From the IMG/VR virus record IMGVR_UViG_3300002026_000008, positions 24,828-88,827 of that record: a stretch of DNA of 64,000 nucleotides; one strand, written 5' to 3'. The notes beneath the pieces are model-generated. The model saw only the letters and a program-made list of their open reading frames with translations, was not told the origin of the DNA and searched no databases. Of this stretch, positions 24,683 to 58,620 are shown in pieces. The position numbers and the translations under genes are program-made. How positions within the stretch are numbered: position 1 is the first letter of the stretch; each line of letters starts with the position of its first letter. The DNA is from a virus (lineage: Duplodnaviria > Caudoviricetes).

Positions 24683-24844
24683 TTAAGAAGATGCCGGCAT
24701 ATCACCAGTGTGTACGGCGTTATGCTCATATCGCCAGTTAGCAGGTCGTTGTGATGGCCATGCAAGTAAAGGACACCCAAGCCATAATAACCATTCGCAG
24801 TTAACATCACCTTCTTTCCATGCAGACATAAAATCATCTGTCAT
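24683..24844 (-). CDS. Small hypothetical protein
   Basis: Probable start MTDDF; Trp-rich. Confidence 0.4.
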   Translation of the reverse strand: MTDDFMSAWKEGDVNCEWLLWLGCPLLAWPSQRPANWRYEHNAVHTGDMPASS

Positions 24845-35969: not shown

Positions 35970-35996
35970 TTAATTCACACTAGGTAAATGAGTATT

Positions 35997-36764
35997 ATGA
36001 AATTTTCACATTATCTCCAAGAAGCCGTTAAACCGTTATTGACGGATAAAAGCAAGATTCATAACTTTCTGTATGTGAATTTTATACGATCCAATAGTAT
36101 CACTATTCACGATAATGGAGTAGTTGATGTCGCCGACAATATCAATCTGAGTAACTGTGATTTAACAGAACTTCCTATCCAATTTGGCAACGTGACAGGT
36201 AGATTTGATATTAGTAGCAATAAAAAACTGAAAAGTCTTCGCGGTTGTCCAAGAATTGTTAATGGTGCGTTTAATGCTAACAATACTAGCATAACGTCAT
36301 TAGATTATACCCCAGAGGAATGTTCATCTTTTTCTATTAGCGATAATAAAAATTTAACATCTCTAAAAGGTATTGAAAAACTTAATAGGTGTGCTAGTTT
36401 CTATATCACAAATACCAATATTGATGGTTTAGAGTTTTTACAGAGTAAAGAGGCTAGCCTGTTATCTATATGCTACAATCCGCGAGTAACATCACTGCAC
36501 AATATTCACATAAAATGCCCAAATTTGGAAAATCTGTATATATCTCCGAAATTTATTAAACGTGAGGTTCTAGGATTGTTGATGCTAAAGCAGCTTAAAC
36601 AGCTTAAAGTGCTAGATGACGAAATGAATGCAGCTATACCCAATAAGTCAGTATGGGCAAAAATAGTATTAAAATATATTGGTAAGAAATTCGATCGGCA
36701 GAATGTCGTAGAGTGTCAACGTGAATTAATAGACGCAGATTTGTCAGAATATGCAAAATTATAA
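35997..36764 (+). CDS. LRR-like repeat protein, paralogue A
   Basis: MKFSHYLQE start; repeats F..S.N..L.SL.G.P..V.G; C-terminus ECQRELIDADLSEYAKL. Confidence 0.8.
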   Translation: MKFSHYLQEAVKPLLTDKSKIHNFLYVNFIRSNSITIHDNGVVDVADNINLSNCDLTELPIQFGNVTGRFDISSNKKLKSLRGCPRIVNGAFNANNTSITSLDYTPEECSSFSISDNKNLTSLKGIEKLNRCASFYITNTNIDGLEFLQSKEASLLSICYNPRVTSLHNIHIKCPNLENLYISPKFIKREVLGLLMLKQLKQLKVLDDEMNAAIPNKSVWAKIVLKYIGKKFDRQNVVECQRELIDADLSEYAKL

Positions 36765-36774
36765 GGGAAATAAA

Positions 36775-37641
36775 ATGAAATTCATGGATTTTTTAGTAGA
36801 AGGTAAACCCATTCTGCTCAAGTCTGCAGTTGAAATTGAAACATGGTTGACAAAACATCATATCAAAGATTTTGTTATAACTGAGATAGATGGATCATTA
36901 ACTGTACGTGTTAATGGTAATGTTAAATTTGAGAATGCTCATATTGAATATTTACCTGTTGTTTTTACCGAAGTAACAGGCACTTTCATCATTAATAAGT
37001 GTGGATTAAAATCACTTAAGGGTGTACCACAAATAATCGATGGTAATTTTAATTGTTCAAACAACAGACTTCAATCACTTAGTTATGGACCAACTAATGT
37101 CGGCGGTGATTATAGCTGTAGTTACAATTTATTAACAATGCTAAAAAGCCCACTTAAACAATTAGCCGGAGGTTTCGACTTTTCACGCAATGTAAAATTG
37201 AAATCTATGGAAGGTATCATTGATATTGTTAATGGTGAAATGGATGGATCAAACTGTGATTTAAGATCACTAGAATTTTCGCCTAAAGAAGTTAATGGTA
37301 CTTATAACGTTGGTGAGAATTTTAATCTCACATCATTAGAACATATTACACCAATTATTGGTGGTGATGTTTACTTCAATTTGTGTAAGATTGAAAGTTT
37401 ACGACACATTGCAAAATACCTTAAGAAATGTAAAACTTTCTATGTTACAAAAACGGTTATAAAAGAAATGATGGGACTGGTGATATTGAATTGTGAAACA
37501 TTGTCATCTGATGTTTACGGTGATGAATATATTTGTAATAGAGCACTTGCAATTATTTTAAAATACCGCAAATCAAAGAAAGTTTTAGACTGTCAAGAAG
37601 AATTAATTGCTGCTGAATTAGAAGGTCCTGCTGGCGGTTAA
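36775..37641 (+). CDS. LRR-like repeat protein, paralogue B
   Basis: MKFMDFLVE start; FNCSNNRLQSLSYGPTNVGGDYSCSYNLLTML repeats; C-terminus DCQEELIAAEL. Confidence 0.8.
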   Translation: MKFMDFLVEGKPILLKSAVEIETWLTKHHIKDFVITEIDGSLTVRVNGNVKFENAHIEYLPVVFTEVTGTFIINKCGLKSLKGVPQIIDGNFNCSNNRLQSLSYGPTNVGGDYSCSYNLLTMLKSPLKQLAGGFDFSRNVKLKSMEGIIDIVNGEMDGSNCDLRSLEFSPKEVNGTYNVGENFNLTSLEHITPIIGGDVYFNLCKIESLRHIAKYLKKCKTFYVTKTVIKEMMGLVILNCETLSSDVYGDEYICNRALAIILKYRKSKKVLDCQEELIAAELEGPAGG

Positions 37642-46128: not shown

Positions 46129-47085
46129 TTAAAAGTCAAGCAGATTTTTCTTTTCAGACACAACTTTGTCGCCAGTGCGAAGATCAACATAATACTTAGC
46201 GAACTTTTCCTTGAACTTTTCGCGAAGCTTAGGTTTGATTTCATCAGGACGTTTTGCTACAATGGTATAGCACATTGAGATCATTGGGTTGACAAGAGCC
46301 ATAACAGCAGAAGCAAAGCCAGAAGATACTGAGCGCATTTCTTCATAAAACGCCATTTGTGTATCATCAAATCGTGGCTTGAGGTACCGTGCTTTACCCA
46401 ACCAGCCTTTAATATCGATAGGCGCAAAACCTGCATCATCGAGTTCTTTCATCATTTCATAATGAGCAAACTCATAGACATGGCTACCTTCCCAGATGAA
46501 TTCTTCACCTTCGTGCTTCTTCGGGTTTGGAGAAGATACAACGATTGTTCCACCAGGAGCAAGACATTTTTGAGCATCAGCAAGAAGTTGCTGAACAACC
46601 GGAATACCTACGTGCTCAAGAACTTCTTGCATAATGATCAAATCAAATTCTTGATTGAGTTCGGTAATCGGCCGCCTCATTGCATCCCAATGGTGAACAG
46701 TACACTTACTAACACCTTTTTGAACAGCATAAAGCTCTTGTGCTTCCTTGACAATGTTTTCTTGTACTTCAAGACCAACATAATCAACACGTGGACGACC
46801 AGGATTTGCAAAGCTTGTCATCCAGAACGTATAAAAGGTTGCACGACTGCAACCTACATCCAAAATACGAACTGGCTTTTCAATATCAGTGCGCAAATCT
46901 GTAACAACCTGTGCAACTACTGCATAACGAAGAAGAGCAGCAAGGTCCCAACCGCTAAACCAACTGAACTTGCCTAGTGCTTCTTTTGTGAACAAATTCA
47001 GAGAACTGTCATCGTGAGTGAAAGTGTAATCGTCTGCATCAATTTGTTCTTGGCAGGCATGTACTCGTTGGGTATTATCAGTCAT
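46129..47085 (-). CDS. Class I SAM-dependent methyltransferase (small-molecule/sugar type)
   Basis: RILDVGC, YVGLEV, FDLIIMQEVLEHV, LAPGGTIVVSSPN, HVYEF; no NPPY/DPPY or PCQ DNA-MTase motif. Confidence 0.88.
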   Translation of the reverse strand: MTDNTQRVHACQEQIDADDYTFTHDDSSLNLFTKEALGKFSWFSGWDLAALLRYAVVAQVVTDLRTDIEKPVRILDVGCSRATFYTFWMTSFANPGRPRVDYVGLEVQENIVKEAQELYAVQKGVSKCTVHHWDAMRRPITELNQEFDLIIMQEVLEHVGIPVVQQLLADAQKCLAPGGTIVVSSPNPKKHEGEEFIWEGSHVYEFAHYEMMKELDDAGFAPIDIKGWLGKARYLKPRFDDTQMAFYEEMRSVSSGFASAVMALVNPMISMCYTIVAKRPDEIKPKLREKFKEKFAKYYVDLRTGDKVVSEKKNLLDF

Positions 47086-50090: not shown

Positions 50091-50142
50091 TGTGAGCCTT
50101 TTTCATAAATATTGTTATTAACATCTTTTGATACTGAAGACT

Positions 50143-50559
50143 ATGAAATCATATGGCAATTTAGAATTAGCTGAAGGTTCAGATATCGTCAATATGACGG
50201 TTGCAACTGGTACAACATTACCGGCTACAACTGCTAATATCGCTGAACTATTCTATAAAACGGGAACTGCAGCTGGACTTTATGTCTATAACGGAAGTTC
50301 TTGGACTAATTTATCATTAGCCGCTTCAGGTGGCAATACTTTGAGTTATGCTTATCAACAAAGCACTGCCTCTACTACATGGAATATTAACCATAATTTA
50401 AACACTACAAATATTACGTATAGCTTTATGGTTTATGTAAGCAGCACGTTAACACCAATTATGCCATCAGCTTTAAGCATAATTGATGCTAACAATATCA
50501 CGGTAACCTTTTCTGTTGCTTATACTGGAACTGCTACCATTGTTGGATCACTTGCATAA
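50143..50559 (+). CDS. Small virion/tail-fibre-associated protein on opposite strand
   Basis: LFYKT..GLYVYNGSSW and WNINHNLNT module shared with 58767..61793; ATAAATA at 50105-50111. Confidence 0.65.
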   Translation: MKSYGNLELAEGSDIVNMTVATGTTLPATTANIAELFYKTGTAAGLYVYNGSSWTNLSLAASGGNTLSYAYQQSTASTTWNINHNLNTTNITYSFMVYVSSTLTPIMPSALSIIDANNITVTFSVAYTGTATIVGSLA

Positions 50560-51955: not shown

Positions 51956-52426
51956 TTATTCCTTTAGCGATCGTAATGGTTTTTGCCATGCAACCTTAAC
52001 ACATTCAACTTTAAGGTTTTTATCATGGTTAATTGTTGTGATATTGGGCACACAATCATCTAAAAGAACACATACTTCATCTTTAAACGTAGCATCACAA
52101 AATTCTATAAATGCTCGTTTTTTGCCCCATACTGATATAAATTCACGTACATCGAATTGTGCACATAAATGTAGCAATACGATTCTGCGAATTTCTTCCA
52201 CTGTCCAAACTCTTGTTACTTTGATCTTGAATGCACGCTCGATCATTTCTTTCATCGTGGTATTGAAATAATCTCTATCTGCTTCATTCCAACAGGCAAA
52301 TGAAAAGATTTCGATTTCTGTGACGTTATGCTCAGTGATCCAGCCAGATACCCTACTCACATTAGTGAGAATGGCATCGTGCCAGTTTGTGATCAATGTT
52401 TCCTCTAAATCGCAAAAAACTCTCAT
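51956..52426 (-). CDS. HAD-like phosphatase (tentative)
   Basis: VFCDLEETL motif I-like and LLDD motif IV-like. Confidence 0.55.
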   Translation of the reverse strand: MRVFCDLEETLITNWHDAILTNVSRVSGWITEHNVTEIEIFSFACWNEADRDYFNTTMKEMIERAFKIKVTRVWTVEEIRRIVLLHLCAQFDVREFISVWGKKRAFIEFCDATFKDEVCVLLDDCVPNITTINHDKNLKVECVKVAWQKPLRSLKE

Positions 52427-52455: not shown

Positions 52456-52485
52456 ATTATATCATAAGCGAAACGAGTTGTAAAC
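52456..52485 (-). promoter_or_regulatory. Early promoter upstream of HAD/dCMP-modifying block
   Basis: GTTTACA-17 nt-TATAAT. Confidence 0.75.
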
Positions 52486-52499
52486 TAAAATTGAAATTG

Positions 52500-54440
52500 T
52501 TATACTTTGAAAATGCTCACGGTTTCTTTAAGCTTCACTGATAATGATTGCAAAGTGTTTGCGCCATTGTACACCTCATTAACACCGGCACTATTTTCTT
52601 CATTCAAATTTGCGAGCATTTCAACACTTGCGGCTATCTGTTCACTAGAAGAACTCTGTTCTTTAAGAGCATTTGAAATTTCACTAATAGTGTCAATCAC
52701 TTTAACTGTTTCACCGTATATTTTCTGCATGCTTTCGCCTGCAATACTTGCATGTGATACACAATTATTAACTTGACTGGCACTATCCTTGATACCAACA
52801 ACGGCAGCTGCCGTTGATTTTTGAATTGCTTCGATCATAACTGCAATTTCTTGAGTTGATATAGCTGTTCTTTCAGCTAATTTGCGTACCTCATCAGCCA
52901 CAACTGCAAATCCACGTCCTTGATCTCCAGCTCTAGCAGCCTCAATTGCAGCATTTAGTGCTAATAGCTTTGTCTGACCTGCGATATCCTTAATCACGTT
53001 GACTATTTCAGAAATCTGTTTCGAGCTATTAGCTAATTCTTCAATCATATCAGCAGCTTTATTTACTGCAATTGAACTAGTTTTCAATTCGGTAACCGTG
53101 TTATTGACCGCTTCCGTGCATTCTAACGACATTTGTCCCGTCCGTTCTGCTAATGTGCTAGAGTCTTGAGCATTATCGGTTACCTGTTTAATGCTTACCG
53201 TTATTTCTTCTAAGGTTGCGGCAATAGATGATGTAGAATCATTTTGTTGTTCAACACTGACAGATACTCGTTTAGCAGTATCAACTAATCCTATAGAAGA
53301 CGTTTCCAAGGTGTCAGCACTTTCATTTATGTTTTTGACTATTGTGCGTAGTCCTTCTTGCATACTACTTAATGCACATATAACACTACCATCTTTAGCA
53401 CCATCTAAATTAACAGGTGTACGTAAATCACCATTAGCAATAACTGTTGCTATGTCAACAGCTTTTTTAGGTTCGCCACCAAGAGGAACCAAAACAAGCC
53501 TGTTAAGCATAACTATCACAAGACTTATGAGTAAAAAGCAAGCAGTAATACCAGTAATTACTATCAGCATTATTCTACCACGCATCATATTATTTGCTTC
53601 TTCTTTGGAATATGCAGCATGAACAGTAAAGCCCCAGGCGGCAAACTCTTTTTCGGATACTTTCCAATTCTCAGCATCTTTTAAATGTGCAGCAATAGCT
53701 TCTTCATTTATGTGTGAAGAATGAAATCGTATTTTTCCTTTATTGTCTGTAATAGAAATAAATCCTTGTGTCAACACTTTGCTGTTATCAACAATAGATT
53801 TCAAATTATCAACATTAACCTTATATCCAACATGCCAAATACCGATGGTATTATTAGCTGCATTTTTAATTGGGGTGTATCCTGTTAAAAATGGGTTACC
53901 GAGAATATCAACCATACCGAAATATTGTTGGTCGCTATTAATAGCAGCATATGCTTTGCCAGTCTTATCCAATACTGTACCAACTGCGCGTGTTCCATCA
54001 TCTTTCATCACATTTGTGGATATTCTAACATAATCATCACCCTGCTTTGTGAAAACGGTAGATGTGCCACCAAGAAGATTTTTGATATTATCAACAAGTT
54101 TGAAATTATTTGCGATAGCAATTGAACCTAATACTAGATCGTTGACAGATTTATCACCAACCTTAACTTCAGGACCCGTAACTGCTTCTCCTAATTGTTC
54201 ACCCTGATTTATTAACACCTTCATGGATGACTGTGTTTGATCCATTATCAACTTATCTGTCACTTCCAACATATTAACTATTTTCGTTAACTGTTTCTCT
54301 TGCTCTATGTTTAGCTCATTTTTAATCCGAGTATTCTCAAATAATGTGAATGCTATTGATCCGCTTAGAATAAACACAGTAATGAACAGTGATATGGATG
54401 TTATAAATCTAAATTTTAAACTCTTGTTATTAAAAAACAT
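52500..54440 (-). CDS. Methyl-accepting chemotaxis protein (TM-Cache-TM-HAMP-MA)
   Basis: Two TM helices; Cache_3/Cache_2-like sensor ([36 protein letters not shown]); [34 protein letters not shown]. Confidence 0.96.
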
Positions 54441-54452
54441 ATTCTACCTCTT

Positions 54453-55349
54453 TTATAATTTTGCGTAATTTTCAAAACCAGCGTCAATCAATTCACGCTG
54501 ACAATCCATAATACCTTGACGGCCTTTACCTAGGTGTTTATTAAGAATAGATAACCACTGTGGTACAGAGGTTGTACCGCTCTGACCCGCAAAACTCTGA
54601 CCTAGCATTTCAATTGGTGTTAAATTATTAAGAAGTAAAACACCTAAGACATGTGATGTGATACTGCTAGTTTTTAACATAACTAGTGATGTGAGATTTG
54701 GAAATGTTTTTTCGATACCTTTAAATGATGTCGCTGCAGTATCGCCTAATACCAGATACTTTACTCCACTGTAAATTTGATCACCGGTGAATACATTGAT
54801 TTTATCTAACCGGTAAATTGTTAGATTTTCTAATGCAACTATTTCTGAAATCTTAGGCATACTTTGTAAATTTTGGCAAGACGATATTGAAAGGGTCTTA
54901 ACTTTATGTATATCAGAAATCTTAGTTAAATTTTCACAGGATTTAATTTCTAATTTGTCAGAATTAACTGGCGCTGTAAGTGTTTTAAGTTTTGAGCATT
55001 TGGATAATTCTAAGGTGCTTACAAAAGAAGGCATATTTTTAGTATTTGATAACTCTGGTAATGATTTTAATACTAATTTACCTAACACTACTGAATGTTT
55101 ACCAAAAGGTAATTTGGTGACTTTGCCACCATTTAATTCAAAATCTTTAGCACACATAACAAAGTTATACGGAATATCTGTGTCTAGTTCTGATACCATA
55201 AGATCACTTGACAAATGAATACTTTCATCATAACTATTCCAGTGAATACCATGTCTAACATCAGTAAACATATCCCCGTGATCATGAAACCACTGTTGGA
55301 TTTCTTGTGTTTTTTCCGTAGACTCTGTTAAAAATTGTGTAAATTTCAT
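54453..55349 (-). CDS. LRR-like repeat protein, paralogue C
   Basis: MKFTQFLTE; L.IKSCENLTKI / LSISSCQNLQSM repeats; ILNKHLGKGRQGIMDCQRELIDAGFENYAKL. Confidence 0.8.
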   Translation of the reverse strand: MKFTQFLTESTEKTQEIQQWFHDHGDMFTDVRHGIHWNSYDESIHLSSDLMVSELDTDIPYNFVMCAKDFELNGGKVTKLPFGKHSVVLGKLVLKSLPELSNTKNMPSFVSTLELSKCSKLKTLTAPVNSDKLEIKSCENLTKISDIHKVKTLSISSCQNLQSMPKISEIVALENLTIYRLDKINVFTGDQIYSGVKYLVLGDTAATSFKGIEKTFPNLTSLVMLKTSSITSHVLGVLLLNNLTPIEMLGQSFAGQSGTTSVPQWLSILNKHLGKGRQGIMDCQRELIDAGFENYAKL

Positions 55350-55888
55350 AATTGTGCAAACTCCGGATATCCTGCTTCTATTAATTCTTGTTGAGCATCC
55401 ATAACACTTTGACGACCTTTACCTAAATGTTTATTGAGAATTGTTTCAATTGGATAAAGTTTATGTTTTTCACGAAATGGTACTGCTTCAGTTATGTAAA
55501 TGGCTGTTACGCCTTTAATCAATAAGACACCTAACACATCTGATTTTATTGGGTTATTCGTTAAATCGATTTTACCATATACTCCTAAAATGGATTTATG
55601 AATATTATGCAATGATGTGAATTTGTTATCTTCAATATACATTGCACCTTTTACATATTTAGGAAAATTATCAAATGATGTTAAAGCATTATCATAAGCG
55701 AAAAAATTCCCATTAATTGTTTCTGGTAACTGGATAGGTATCCTTGTCATCATTTTTTTACCGAGTGCAGCTATATTAAGTTCATTAACGGGTGGTACAT
55801 TATATGCGCGCAACGCCATCTCTAATGCTATCTCATAATCAAATGGGGTATCATTTCGTTTTGTTTCAAAAAGTTCAGACAATTTCAT
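55346..55888 (-). CDS. LRR-like repeat protein, paralogue D
   Basis: MKLSELFE; NALTSFDNFPKYVKG; ILNKHLGKGRQSVMDAQQELIEAGYPEFAQL. Confidence 0.8.
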   Translation of the reverse strand: MKLSELFETKRNDTPFDYEIALEMALRAYNVPPVNELNIAALGKKMMTRIPIQLPETINGNFFAYDNALTSFDNFPKYVKGAMYIEDNKFTSLHNIHKSILGVYGKIDLTNNPIKSDVLGVLLIKGVTAIYITEAVPFREKHKLYPIETILNKHLGKGRQSVMDAQQELIEAGYPEFAQL

Positions 55889-56448
55889 AGCTTTGCGAAC
55901 TCCGGATATCCTGCATTTATTAATTCCTCTTGCGCTTCCATGACAGCATTATTACCATTACCTAAATGTCTATTTAGAATTTTTTCTATTTGAGCTAAAA
56001 TTTTATCATCCTTGCCTTTAGCAGTGCTGGATACTAAAACTATTTTCTTCAAATTCTTGATGAGTAATAATCCTAACACATTTGATTTGATAGGATTATA
56101 ACCTAATAGAATACCATCTTTTCCAGTAATTTCAGTAATGTGCTTATGAATATCCTTTAACGAAGTAAAGTTATTATCAGATACATCTAAGCCACCATTT
56201 GTTATAATCTTAGGAAAATTGTTAAATGAGCTAAGTTTATTTCCATTTAACCAAATAGATTTATTGAATGTTTCAGGAAATATATTAGGTGGTAACTCTT
56301 TCATTTTACTATCACCTAATGAGCTAAGTATTAATCCAAATGCAGGTATAGGTTCTGCCAATTTTTCCTTAATCATTTCTGCATAGTCGTTGCGTAAATC
56401 ACTAGTATGACTATATGGACCCTCTTGTAAGTATTCTTTGAATCTCAT
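55885..56448 (-). CDS. LRR-like repeat protein, paralogue E
   Basis: Start MRFKEYLQE overlaps upstream TGA; NKLSSFNNFPK; MEAQEELINAGYPEFAKL. Confidence 0.8.
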   Translation of the reverse strand: MRFKEYLQEGPYSHTSDLRNDYAEMIKEKLAEPIPAFGLILSSLGDSKMKELPPNIFPETFNKSIWLNGNKLSSFNNFPKIITNGGLDVSDNNFTSLKDIHKHITEITGKDGILLGYNPIKSNVLGLLLIKNLKKIVLVSSTAKGKDDKILAQIEKILNRHLGNGNNAVMEAQEELINAGYPEFAKL

Positions 56449-57014
56449 AATTGCGCAAACTCCGGATAATCCGCATCTATTAATGCACGTTGACAATCAA
56501 ATATACCTTCTTTACCTCTAGGTAAATAAGTATTCATAATTCTTTCTAATACTTTATCCGTGAATTTAACAGTCTTCAAATCACTTATTAAACATAAACC
56601 TAGAATATGTGAATCTATGGGGCACATATTAAAATTAGCGCTGCCCTTAATGTAATGAATATGCTTATGGATATTATGCAACGATTTAATAGGGTTATGG
56701 GAACAATCAAGTTCTTTACCGATATATGTAGGTGCACCTTTAAGAGATTTTAACTCATTAATATAGCAGTGAAAATTCCCTGTCACTGATTCTGGTCCAC
56801 CTACTAATGAAGTGATATTATTATTCGAACAATCAAAATCACCATTAATATCTCGTGGTGACCCTTCAATAGAAGTTAATCCTAAATCATTAGCATTAAA
56901 CTTTCTATTCCAATGTCTATCTTTGATGCTTGGGGTGATAATAATGGCACTAATAACCTTACCATAAAGGTTAACCTTTTCAACTTCTTCAGTTATATAT
57001 TCTTTGAATCTCAT
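56445..57014 (-). CDS. LRR-like repeat protein, paralogue F
   Basis: MRFKEYITE; FDCSNNNITSLVGGPESVTGNFHC; DCQRALIDADYPEFAQL. Confidence 0.82.
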   Translation of the reverse strand: MRFKEYITEEVEKVNLYGKVISAIIITPSIKDRHWNRKFNANDLGLTSIEGSPRDINGDFDCSNNNITSLVGGPESVTGNFHCYINELKSLKGAPTYIGKELDCSHNPIKSLHNIHKHIHYIKGSANFNMCPIDSHILGLCLISDLKTVKFTDKVLERIMNTYLPRGKEGIFDCQRALIDADYPEFAQL

Positions 57015-57709
57015 AATTGTGCAAACTCCTCATATCCAGCATCAATCAATTCGCGTTGCGCATCCATAACACTTTGACGACCTTTACCCAAATGCCTGTT
57101 CAGAATATTTTGGATATATTTATTATTCATCTCTATGTGTATTACCCCATCAATTAGCAATAACCCTAATATATGAGAGTCAATGTTATTATCAGCACAG
57201 TGAAATTCACCTTTGATACATTTAATATGTTTATGTATATTTTTTAGTGATGTTAACTGGTTATTAGTACAATAAAAATGACCGGCTATTAAATCAATTT
57301 CACAATCAAATTCTTTTATCATATTGTCATCACAATAAAAATCACCGTTGCATATTTTAGGGGCGTATTTGAGACTTGTCAATTCATTCACCGTACAATC
57401 AAACCAGCCCACCTCAGTAGCAACACCTTCTAATGATGTTAACTTATTACTTTGACAGTTATATTCCTTTGTTACCTTTTCTGGTCCGCCTATTAAATTT
57501 TGCAATTTATTTACATTGCAAGAAAATCCTCCATCAACAATGAATTTCGGACATCCATCTAAACTTGTTATTCCAAACCCAGATAAAGTTAAGCTACCAT
57601 GCCATGTTTTATTTCTCCAATTATTATCTAATTGAACAGGTAATCCATTAGCTCTAAATTTAACAGTAGCAGCAGTTACTTCTTCGAATAAATATTCTCT
57701 AAATCTCAT
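57011..57709 (-). CDS. LRR-like repeat protein, paralogue G
   Basis: MRFREYLFE; about seven 22-aa F.C..N.LTSL repeats; MDAQRELIDAGYEEFAQL. Confidence 0.82.
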   Translation of the reverse strand: MRFREYLFEEVTAATVKFRANGLPVQLDNNWRNKTWHGSLTLSGFGITSLDGCPKFIVDGGFSCNVNKLQNLIGGPEKVTKEYNCQSNKLTSLEGVATEVGWFDCTVNELTSLKYAPKICNGDFYCDDNMIKEFDCEIDLIAGHFYCTNNQLTSLKNIHKHIKCIKGEFHCADNNIDSHILGLLLIDGVIHIEMNNKYIQNILNRHLGKGRQSVMDAQRELIDAGYEEFAQL

Positions 57710-58620
57710 TTGAATTCCTCAAATTCTAATGGCATCTCAAATTTTTCTTTTGCTTGCCGTTTATACAATACTGTTGCTGCTTCCTTCATTGCGGCATTAT
57801 ATTCAGTTTTGCTCAATTTGTTTTTCATAGAATGCAATAGTGATTCAACCGTTTCAATGCTTTTAGTTTTAGTATTTTCACCGAATAATAACACTGCGAA
57901 ATCGTCAGGATTAGTGATTGTATCAGGTGTATCTTTAAATGAATCATTAACACCCATTTGTTCGAGTTCTTTCTTAAGCTGCGCAGGCGTCACATTACCC
58001 ATATTCTTTGTTCTACCTTTACCGTCTTTTCTATTTGTAGTAGATTTGAATAATCGCTCGACACCAGTATCCCATTTAAAACTTCTAGAGGCTCTAGCAA
58101 TCACATTGCCTTCATCATCTTTAATAAGAACATCTTCACCAGGTACAATTTTTTGATGGAGAACGCAGGTCAGTAACTCATTACGAATCAGGTTTTTGAA
58201 CTTTGATTTTCTACCTTCATCATTCTTATAAACAAACTTTGCCCATTTCACATTTGGGACATACATCAAATCTACCTGAATTTTCTTTTTGCCTGCAGTA
58301 ACAGCATAAGATCCAACACCTAACCCACCAAGTACACCTTCACCATTAACCGCTTTCATCATTTTCTTATGTATGTCTTCTTTAGAATATTTGTCCTGTG
58401 GTAATGCGATATCTACATCTCCACTATCATCTCTATAACCCATCATTGTTAAATCTACCGAACCGAGAACATTTGAACGAAGAACACCAACATCAATTCC
58501 TGTATGGTCCGCAACGAATTCGAGACATTTGATAATGTCATCTTTATTAGCACGTTCTGTGCCCCATTTCTTTGTTGCCTTTCCGCCTTCTACTAATAAC
58601 ATTCCCATAAACGTAATCAT
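57706..58620 (-). CDS. Pol-beta-superfamily nucleotidyltransferase
   Basis: LGS-x13-DVD signature (LGSVDLTMMGYRDDSGDVDIAL) and third acid in IQVDLM; ATAAATA upstream at 58665-58671. Confidence 0.7.
   Translation of the reverse strand: MITFMGMLLVEGGKATKKWGTERANKDDIIKCLEFVADHTGIDVGVLRSNVLGSVDLTMMGYRDDSGDVDIALPQDKYSKEDIHKKMMKAVNGEGVLGGLGVGSYAVTAGKKKIQVDLMYVPNVKWAKFVYKNDEGRKSKFKNLIRNELLTCVLHQKIVPGEDVLIKDDEGNVIARASRSFKWDTGVERLFKSTTNRKDGKGRTKNMGNVTPAQLKKELEQMGVNDSFKDTPDTITNPDDFAVLLFGENTKTKSIETVESLLHSMKNKLSKTEYNAAMKEAATVLYKRQAKEKFEMPLEFEEFK

Follow-up and report, generated by a model that had tools for sequence, protein, structure and literature searches.

Why should a phage carry a complete bacterial chemoreceptor gene, and what could such a receptor do in an infected cell? 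The question is raised by a 64,000-nt stretch of the IMG/VR virus record IMGVR_UViG_3300002026_000008 (positions 24,828 to 88,827 of that record; hereafter the window), in which a methyl-accepting chemotaxis protein (MCP) is encoded on the minus strand. In the open reading frame (ORF) listing the gene is one unbroken, ATG-started frame of 646 codons at 52500-54440, 1,941 nt long with no interruption, which bears out the intact 646-aa receptor gene described in a sequence-only reading of the same DNA. Our analysis adds to that reading a PacF-like sensor with a predicted formate ligand, and it identifies the receptor as one more member of a recurring, unstudied class of phage chemoreceptors, distinct by its predicted formate sensor and by a rare residue, K491, at its signalling tip. 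The features of the gene on which the argument draws are the following.

52500-54440, minus strand: intact MCP gene carried by the phage, with 646 codons and a stop (ORF; Pfam; PHROGs MCP family phrog_8572 at 2.3e-78; AlphaFold2 model with a mean pLDDT of 86.7)
54447-54452, minus strand: AAGAGG ribosome-binding site, 6 nt 5' of the ATG and abutting the upstream stop codon
54339-54407, minus strand: first transmembrane segment (TM1), residues 12-34, a hydrophobic stretch within model helix 8-82
53574-54338, minus strand: periplasmic bimodular Cache_3-Cache_2 (dCache) sensor, residues 35-289 (Pfam, model, Foldseek)
54057-54059, minus strand: T128 codon, corresponding to the formate-binding Thr (R6 T100 / R3 T105) in the alignment to 8PY0/8PY1
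54024-54026, minus strand: R139 codon, corresponding to the formate salt-bridge Arg (R6 R111 / R3 R118 / PacF R142) in the alignment to 8PY0/8PY1
53877-53879, minus strand: Y188 codon, corresponding to the formate-binding Tyr (R6 Y160 / R3 Y167) in the alignment to 8PY0/8PY1
53505-53573, minus strand: second transmembrane segment (TM2), residues 290-312, a hydrophobic stretch in model helix 279-317
53346-53504, minus strand: divergent HAMP-like linker, residues 313-365, aligning with the HAMP of Tsr and PcaY (pLDDT 46-68)
52503-53345, minus strand: cytoplasmic 40H-class signalling hairpin, residues 366-646 (PF00015), with methylation-type sites near residues 407, 596 and 610
52968-52970, minus strand: K491 AAG codon, equivalent to Tsr N376 (sequence; HMMER alignment to Tsr chain 6s1k_E)

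The sensor belongs to the Cache_3-Cache_2 family (PF17201, residues 39-251, 150.3 bits against a Pfam cut-off of 27.7). Residues 59-216 have only two sequence matches in the PDB, 8PY0 (E = 9e-20) and 8PY1 (E = 3e-16), which are formate-bound sCache sensors (Oscillibacter ruminantium, Asticcacaulis benevestitus) published together with PacF (PMC11804620). PacF (ECA_RS17860) is the formate chemoreceptor of Pectobacterium atrosepticum, a Cache_3-Cache_2 dCache receptor with formate in its membrane-distal module, and the formate-binding residues of the family are Arg 118/111 (salt bridge), Thr 105/100 and Tyr 167/160, the equivalent arginine of PacF being R142 (PMC11804620). In the phage protein the triad T128/R139/Y188 aligns ungapped with 8PY0/8PY1 (HMMER) and its spacing equals that of the solved sensors, with 11 or 13 residues from Thr to Arg and 49 from Arg to Tyr. 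PacF R142/T145/T158 correspond to phage R139/T142/T155, a mapping drawn from residue spacing and from the equivalences stated with the structures (PMC11804620). Among 108 homologues reaching down to 28% identity, T128 and Y188 do not vary, and each of R139, T142 and T155 is kept in at least 90%.

The AlphaFold2 model, built on 108 homologues, has a pLDDT of 94-98 in the sensor, for which the best Foldseek matches are again 8PY0 (TMt 0.80-0.81) and 8PY1 (0.77), followed by dCache sensors (Tlp3, Mlp24, PscC). The triad alignment, its conservation and the fold match lead us to predict a receptor for formate or a small carboxylate. By alignment and modelling the sensor is a PacF-like Cache_3-Cache_2 dCache domain that keeps the formate triad, and the phage MCP probably senses formate or a closely similar small carboxylate. 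The family and the Thr/Arg/Tyr triad are common to PacF, the two solved sensors and the phage receptor, and PacF has in addition a bimodular dCache on an MCP, as here; the solved sensors, however, are only ~29% identical to the phage sensor, and the phage gene is virus-borne.

Outside the sensor, the layout TM-Cache-TM-HAMP-MA that had been read from the sequence holds for the transmembrane segments, the Cache domain and the signalling domain (MCPsignal, PF00015, residues 450-611, 150.8 bits with a gathering cut-off of 34.6), whereas the HAMP part is weakly supported; the closest bacterial homologues likewise have no precomputed HAMP match. The protein matches PcaY and Tsr chains at E = 2e-35 to 1e-34, and NCBIfam returned no equivalog at cut-off for it. 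In the model a long N-terminal helix (residues 8-82) leads into two alpha/beta modules, which are followed by the TM2 helix (279-317), a weakly modelled linker and a helical hairpin (353-503/505-642) turning at G505. Compared with the 36H receptor Tsr, the hairpin has one 14-residue insertion per arm, and it aligns ungapped with Pseudomonas putida PcaY (HMMER), so that the phage MCP is assigned by alignment to the 40H class. With the consensus [ASTG][ASTG]xx[EQ][EQ]xx[ASTG][ASTG], one strict methylation-type motif (residue 596) and four relaxed ones (394, 407, 590, 610) were recognized, by motif only. The C-terminus reads ...SIFKV, without an NWETF-type pentapeptide (x[HFWY]xx[HFWY]). That much had been observed correctly, but its treatment as an alteration does not stand, since all 22 of the closest homologues also lack the pentapeptide, ending in F(R/K)(V/I/L/M) or similar; its absence is inherited and the norm across the whole family, not a phage change.

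The signalling tip of the phage protein keeps all positions of the motif but two, N491K and E506D, and the lysine codon AAG was confirmed at 52970-52968. The sequence-only reading had called QTNLLALNAA normally invariant. This is true of the near family, in which 113 of 116 close homologues read QTN, two read GTN and the phage protein alone reads QTK, but a lysine occurs naturally at this position in at least 118 bacterial MCP tips. To place the residue in its lineage, a degenerate DNA pattern for Q-T-N-x-L-A-L-N-A-A was counted in 201 genomes sampled from the order holding a Propionivibrio metagenome-assembled genome (MAG): the N version gave 1,658 matches in 160 of the 201 genomes and the K version two (~0.1%), a rarity that is independent of one unpublished genome (G027), which gives 1 of the 1,658 matches. 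One of the two K matches is a 43-codon frame in a Propionivibrio dicarboxylicus MAG that breaks right after EAARA and, judged from its sequence, is a broken MCP or an assembly error. Across 2.9 million IMG/VR contigs the K motif has zero other matches and the N version at least 120, so K491 is not a recurrent phage trait.

Among 185,579 species genomes the K version has at least 120 matches, and among the matches listed 118 are in-frame MCP tips, 96 of them with the full EAARAG context. Orthologue sets with the K tip recur in Rhodospirillales/Tagaea, Coriobacteriia, Solirubrobacterales, Bacillaceae and Magnetococcales, and the tip is also found in Janthinobacterium. An uncultured Selenomonas MAG (NZ_CAURXA010000008.1) carries three MCP genes in tandem, each reading QTK, so that Lys is fixed in this paralogue family. 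As far as these motif counts indicate, lysine is rare in the receptor's own lineage and compatible with long-term retention elsewhere. Codon choice was considered as a clue to the age of N491K and proved uninformative, AAG making up 11 of the 45 Lys codons in the gene and 39% in its neighbours.

Tsr, the Escherichia coli 36H MCP (1QU7, 3ZX6, 6S1K, 8C5V), has the same signalling fold and tip motif, and its residues I377, L380, N381, V384, E385, R388, F396 and V398 correspond to phage L492, L495, N496, I499, E500, R503, F511 and V513. The phage receptor differs from Tsr in being 40H, with two extra heptads per arm, in having a dCache instead of a four-helix bundle and no NWETF, and in carrying K for N376, D for E391 and G for F373. 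According to a 2026 review, Tsr N376C crosslinks CheA-P5 residues in vivo (Pinas et al. 2018) (PMC13098124). N376 lies outside the 4-A contact lists of the array models 6S1K and 8C5V, and the contact-list residues Tsr I377, L380, N381, V384 and R388 are all conserved in the phage MCP. At the CheA-P5/MCP interface, single to triple mutants still form complexes and retain some chemotaxis, and the interface is rated less critical than the CheW contacts and non-essential (PMC13098124). The second changed residue, D506 (codon 52924-52926), is the hairpin-turn residue equivalent to Tsr E391 (AGDQG) and is Glu in 21 of 22 close relatives; Asp at this position is also seen in some distant homologues and in several K-variant MCPs.

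Where the gene came from is indicated by a homologue search that covered 5.8 billion proteins, in which the best matches are collinear 643-644-aa MCPs with 46-56% identity (Rhodocyclus tenuis, Azonexus, Pseudazoarcus, Rhodocyclales) and the cluster mates of these include Ferribacterium limneticum and Azonexus. A maximum-likelihood tree (IQ-TREE, 66 homologues) puts the phage MCP with the bacterial proteins P0002 and P0014 (SH-aLRT 100) inside a 28-member Rhodocyclales-type clade (96). A phylogeny had been proposed as the means of finding the donor, and the tree places it among Rhodocyclales-type betaproteobacteria. Among species-level genomes, P0002, a sister of the phage protein, comes closest to a groundwater Rhodocyclales MAG (58%) and to Rhodocyclus gracilis (56%), after which come Sulfuricellaceae and other betaproteobacteria. 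The nesting within a bacterial clade points to transfer from bacterium to phage and the ameliorated base composition to an old transfer, and the MCP was captured long ago from a Rhodocyclales-type (freshwater) betaproteobacterial MCP family.

With the Rhodocyclales-type receptors the phage copy shares full-length collinearity, the 40H hairpin, an F(R/K)V-type end without pentapeptide and a near-identical tip, but it is AT-rich (GC at third codon positions, GC3, 0.26) and its terminal branch, 0.68 against 0.17 and 0.30 in its sisters, is 2-4x longer. IQ-TREE flags its amino-acid composition as deviant, as is expected for an AT-rich genome. Of the 120 columns that are the same in 21 or all of the 22 bacterial relatives it keeps 110 (92%), the ten departures being Q109I, V119I, A127S, L129V, P159K, Y203H, A229S, G441C, N491K and E506D, while it agrees with the majority in just 20% of the 233 variable columns. 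By this pattern of substitution the gene, intact though fast-evolving, is under purifying selection.

The carrier is itself of interest for the argument. The window is part of an 88,827-bp record with a CheckV completeness of 25%, which implies a full phage genome of about 350 kb. It encodes both topoisomerase II subunits, a beta-glucosyltransferase, head-decoration and tail-fibre/baseplate families, a thymidylate-synthase homologue and a helicase, and its closest isolate via topoisomerase II is the Ralstonia jumbo phage RsoM2USA (343.8 kb, 48% identity); the source is a T4-like jumbo phage. A megablast of the 50-58 kb region against phage records gave no match, and in IMG/VR no close relatives were found for the MCP, for the 156-aa gene downstream or for the upstream leucine-rich repeat (LRR) gene, bar one 42% partial match to the latter. 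The MCP gene had been described as AT-rich like its neighbours, and so it is: its GC is 0.362 and its GC3 0.257, inside the GC3 range of 0.20-0.35 of 13 neighbouring genes, compared with a GC3 of 0.47 for the closest bacterial homologue gene, which lies on a contig of 53.5% GC. On the 5' side, the TAA stop of the LRR gene is at 54455-54453 and the AAGAGG of the MCP gene follows directly, as previously noted, although the distance from stop to ATG is 12 nt and not 13; on the 3' side, a phage gene on the same strand lies 73 nt downstream. The receptor gene thus has the marks of a phage auxiliary gene, being located inside a phage genome, phage-like in composition and of cellular origin.

What, then, would the phage gain from it? 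We consider it reasonably likely, on the strength of homology and modelling, that the MCP inserts into host arrays and there adds or alters formate input to swimming, and this is the most likely mechanism. During infection the protein would enter the inner membrane, join host receptor/CheW/CheA arrays via its conserved tip, and add or boost an input of formate (or a similar small carboxylate) to flagellar control, and the swimming of the infected cell would be biased to the phage's benefit; K491, at the edge of the receptor/CheA-P5 interface, would probably tune the coupling and not abolish it. Plugging into host arrays is the natural reading because the tip matches the receptors of the donor clade almost perfectly. 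On the 88.8-kb record there is no match for CheW, Response_reg or Flagellin_N, nor are there CheA or CheY genes, so the receptor would need host partners, although three quarters of the genome are unseen. A 318-aa ORF at 46129-47085 (minus strand) has a sub-threshold CheR-domain match (11.7 bits, E = 0.006) and is probably a generic S-adenosylmethionine-dependent methyltransferase, not a chemotaxis methyltransferase. The earlier proposal that the phage rewires or jams host chemotaxis is thereby divided: array entry and altered taxis are supported by the retained tip, jamming through an altered tip is not.

Several points weigh against this mechanism. The specificity for formate is deduced from a signature of three residues and from the matching fold, and Pfam HAMP (PF00672) has no match in the MCP at E<=0.01, the region being modelled with low confidence. 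In the host-side order K491 is a great rarity (2 motif matches versus ~1,658), and with ten otherwise conserved positions altered in all, N491K, Y203H, G441C and E506D among them, some loss or change of function is possible. In IMG/VR there is no close phage relative to show that the MCP is conserved within the phage lineage, the promoter scan let no promoter be assigned to the gene, and the available sequence (88.8 kb) is about a quarter of the phage genome.

The alternatives differ in how they treat the tip, the output and the history of the gene. An array poison, in which K491 (with D506) mis-couples to CheA/CheW, locks the kinase on or off and abolishes chemotaxis or fixes the flagellar bias, is in our judgement unlikely. 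It would fit the uniqueness of K491 among the 116 close homologues, its share of ~0.1% of tip motifs in the 201 host-side-order genomes with no occurrence in any other IMG/VR contig, the crosslinking of Tsr N376 to CheA-P5 reported in the review (PMC13098124), and the long phage branch. Yet at least 118 bacterial MCP tips, all of them in frame, have K fixed at this position, whole lineages among them; N376 is not among the 4-A contacts of 6S1K/8C5V, and the P5/receptor interface tolerates multiple mutations (PMC13098124); and a pure jammer would have no need of the retained ligand pocket and methylation motifs or of the conserved columns, 92% of which are kept. Less credible again is a receptor that feeds a non-flagellar output (type IV pili, cyclic di-GMP or an alternative chemosensory pathway) or times the phage programme, with no steering at all. 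Betaproteobacteria of this group carry many MCPs (a single Propionivibrio MAG has 30 matches, and one genome holds as many as 58 tip motifs), so that several pathways are likely, and no che partners on the contig point to a particular one. The two transmembrane helices, the periplasmic dCache and the 40H hairpin, however, like the relative PacF, belong to flagellar chemotaxis, and no phage output module is adjacent.

A neutral passenger heading for decay, to which we give a lower standing still, could account for the ten substitutions at otherwise conserved positions, for an end branch 2-4x the length of its sisters' and for the want of a related phage in IMG/VR showing retention; against this, the frame is intact despite a residence long enough for GC3 to reach the phage level, the substitutions avoid conserved columns (92% kept, versus 20% majority residues in variable columns) and the ribosome-binding site is intact. 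An assembly chimera, with a gene of bacterial origin fused to phage sequence, had been named as what would overturn the sequence-only reading, and the gene does come from a single metagenomic contig, with a protein cluster of one member on one contig. Its GC of 0.362 and GC3 of 0.257 nevertheless fit the phage, the nearest bacterial gene and its contig standing at 0.48-0.55; bacterial matches do not exceed 56% identity, and on the same strand the gene is flanked by phage genes at distances of 12 nt (upstream) and 73 nt (downstream). Given the phage-like composition and a best cellular identity of only 56%, a chimera is excluded for practical purposes, and composition, packing and the T4-like contig all speak for a phage-borne gene. 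We retain insertion into host arrays with a formate input as the preferred reading of the receptor.

Chemoreceptors had been described as not typical of phages, which is true, but they recur in jumbo phages. Signalling-domain relatives are encoded by 317 IMG/VR contigs, and of the best 80 just 12 are separated from both contig ends by more than 10 kb; with so few far from the ends, most of the 317 are probably host genes at prophage edges. The contig IMGVR_UViG_3300024239_000014 (249.6 kb; stretch L268, 9653-11635) encodes a 652-aa Cache_3-Cache_2-HAMP-MCPsignal protein that has the same sensor type and the Thr/Arg/Tyr triad, but a canonical QTN tip and 28% identity to the MCP studied here, and its sequence suggests that this type of sensor was captured there independently. 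It is surrounded by ORFans and by genes for a homing endonuclease, an HslV-like peptidase and an ATPase. The cultured Vibrio phage vB_VmeM-Yong XC31 (MK308674.1, 290.5 kb) encodes a 610-aa dCache_1-HAMP-MCPsignal protein, QAX96201.1 (stretch L407, 2233-4065), annotated in GenBank merely as a hypothetical protein. In a 2026 preprint, the Nitrosospira phages roc1 and ripk2 are reported to encode CheR, CheY and MCP, roc1 being a jumbo phage of 338.7 kb. Like the present receptor, the other jumbo-phage MCPs are full-length sensor-TM-MCPsignal proteins in large virulent-type genomes without a full che pathway nearby, but they were captured independently and share no more than 33% identity with it; all other phage MCPs checked have the canonical QTN tip, and the sensor of the Vibrio phage protein is a dCache_1. 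In the searchable literature we found no paper testing any phage MCP experimentally.

The immediate surroundings of the gene bear on its expression. Directly upstream is a run of related genes:

54453-57709, minus strand: five co-oriented LRR paralogues directly 5' of the MCP gene (translations; weak LRR_EndoS match)

The N-termini of the five are MKFTQFLTE, MKLSELFE, MRFKEYLQE, MRFKEYITE and MRFREYLFE, and a C-terminal tail is common to all of them. Seven LRR-type paralogues occur in the window, at 54453-57709 (minus strand) and 35988-37641 (plus strand), with short MKF/MRF..(F/Y)L.E N-termini that resemble T4 capsid-targeting leaders and with the C-terminal tail ..CQ.ELIDAG..FA.L in common; the gene at 57706-58620, 5' of the run, is outside the paralogue set. 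The five LRR genes and the MCP gene possibly form one transcription unit, and the N-termini, if they are capsid-targeting leaders, would hint at late transcription.

The sequence-only reading had gone further and considered the receptor probably co-transcribed late, which the promoter scan does not support. The exact T4 late promoter TATAAATA is absent from 52-59 kb; in the whole window TATAAATA has 8 exact matches against 9.1 expected, and one-mismatch sites are below chance. AATAAATA is present ~45 nt upstream of the start at 58620, a sigma70-like site lies at 58900-58872 within a divergent tail-fibre gene, and a weak sigma70-like site at 54487-54458. With only sigma70-like and one-mismatch motifs found, the sequence does not settle the timing. 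A strong sigma70-like promoter at 52456-52484 on the minus strand (TTTACA, 17 nt, TG-TATAAT, 11/12) is located in the 73-nt gap past the MCP stop and probably serves the 156-aa gene at 51956-52426; no terminator-like site was found 3' of the MCP gene on its strand. Further downstream, a lone plus-strand ORF of 143 aa at 50128-50559 sits amid minus-strand genes. It has matches to phrog_21918 and to the C-terminal portions of families of the virion/tail-fibre type, and shares 12 nt with the end of the thymidylate-synthase homologue.

Phage-encoded chemoreceptors are the clearest candidates for a virus that steers the movement of bacterial cells, and the receptor described here is unusually testable, because its sensor falls in the one family of Cache_3-Cache_2 domains whose ligand, formate, is known and for which ligand-bound structures have been solved, and the K491/N491 pair allows the receptor-kinase interface to be compared cleanly at a single residue. 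The receptor also provides a host lead for an orphan phage of ~350 kb, namely a motile betaproteobacterium of the Rhodocyclaceae/Azonexaceae type. The widest interpretation, which we put forward tentatively and regard as possible though less than probable, is that a virulent jumbo phage redirects the swimming of its infected host by means of a captured formate receptor in which K491 re-tunes the kinase interface, and that this belongs to a general strategy of giant phages, at least 4-5 unrelated lineages having each captured a different MCP. Infected cells could, for example, be driven toward, or held in, formate-rich, anoxic, host-dense zones. If true, this steering would be a genuine viral manipulation of bacterial behaviour and, among giant phages whose infection cycles are long, a general strategy.

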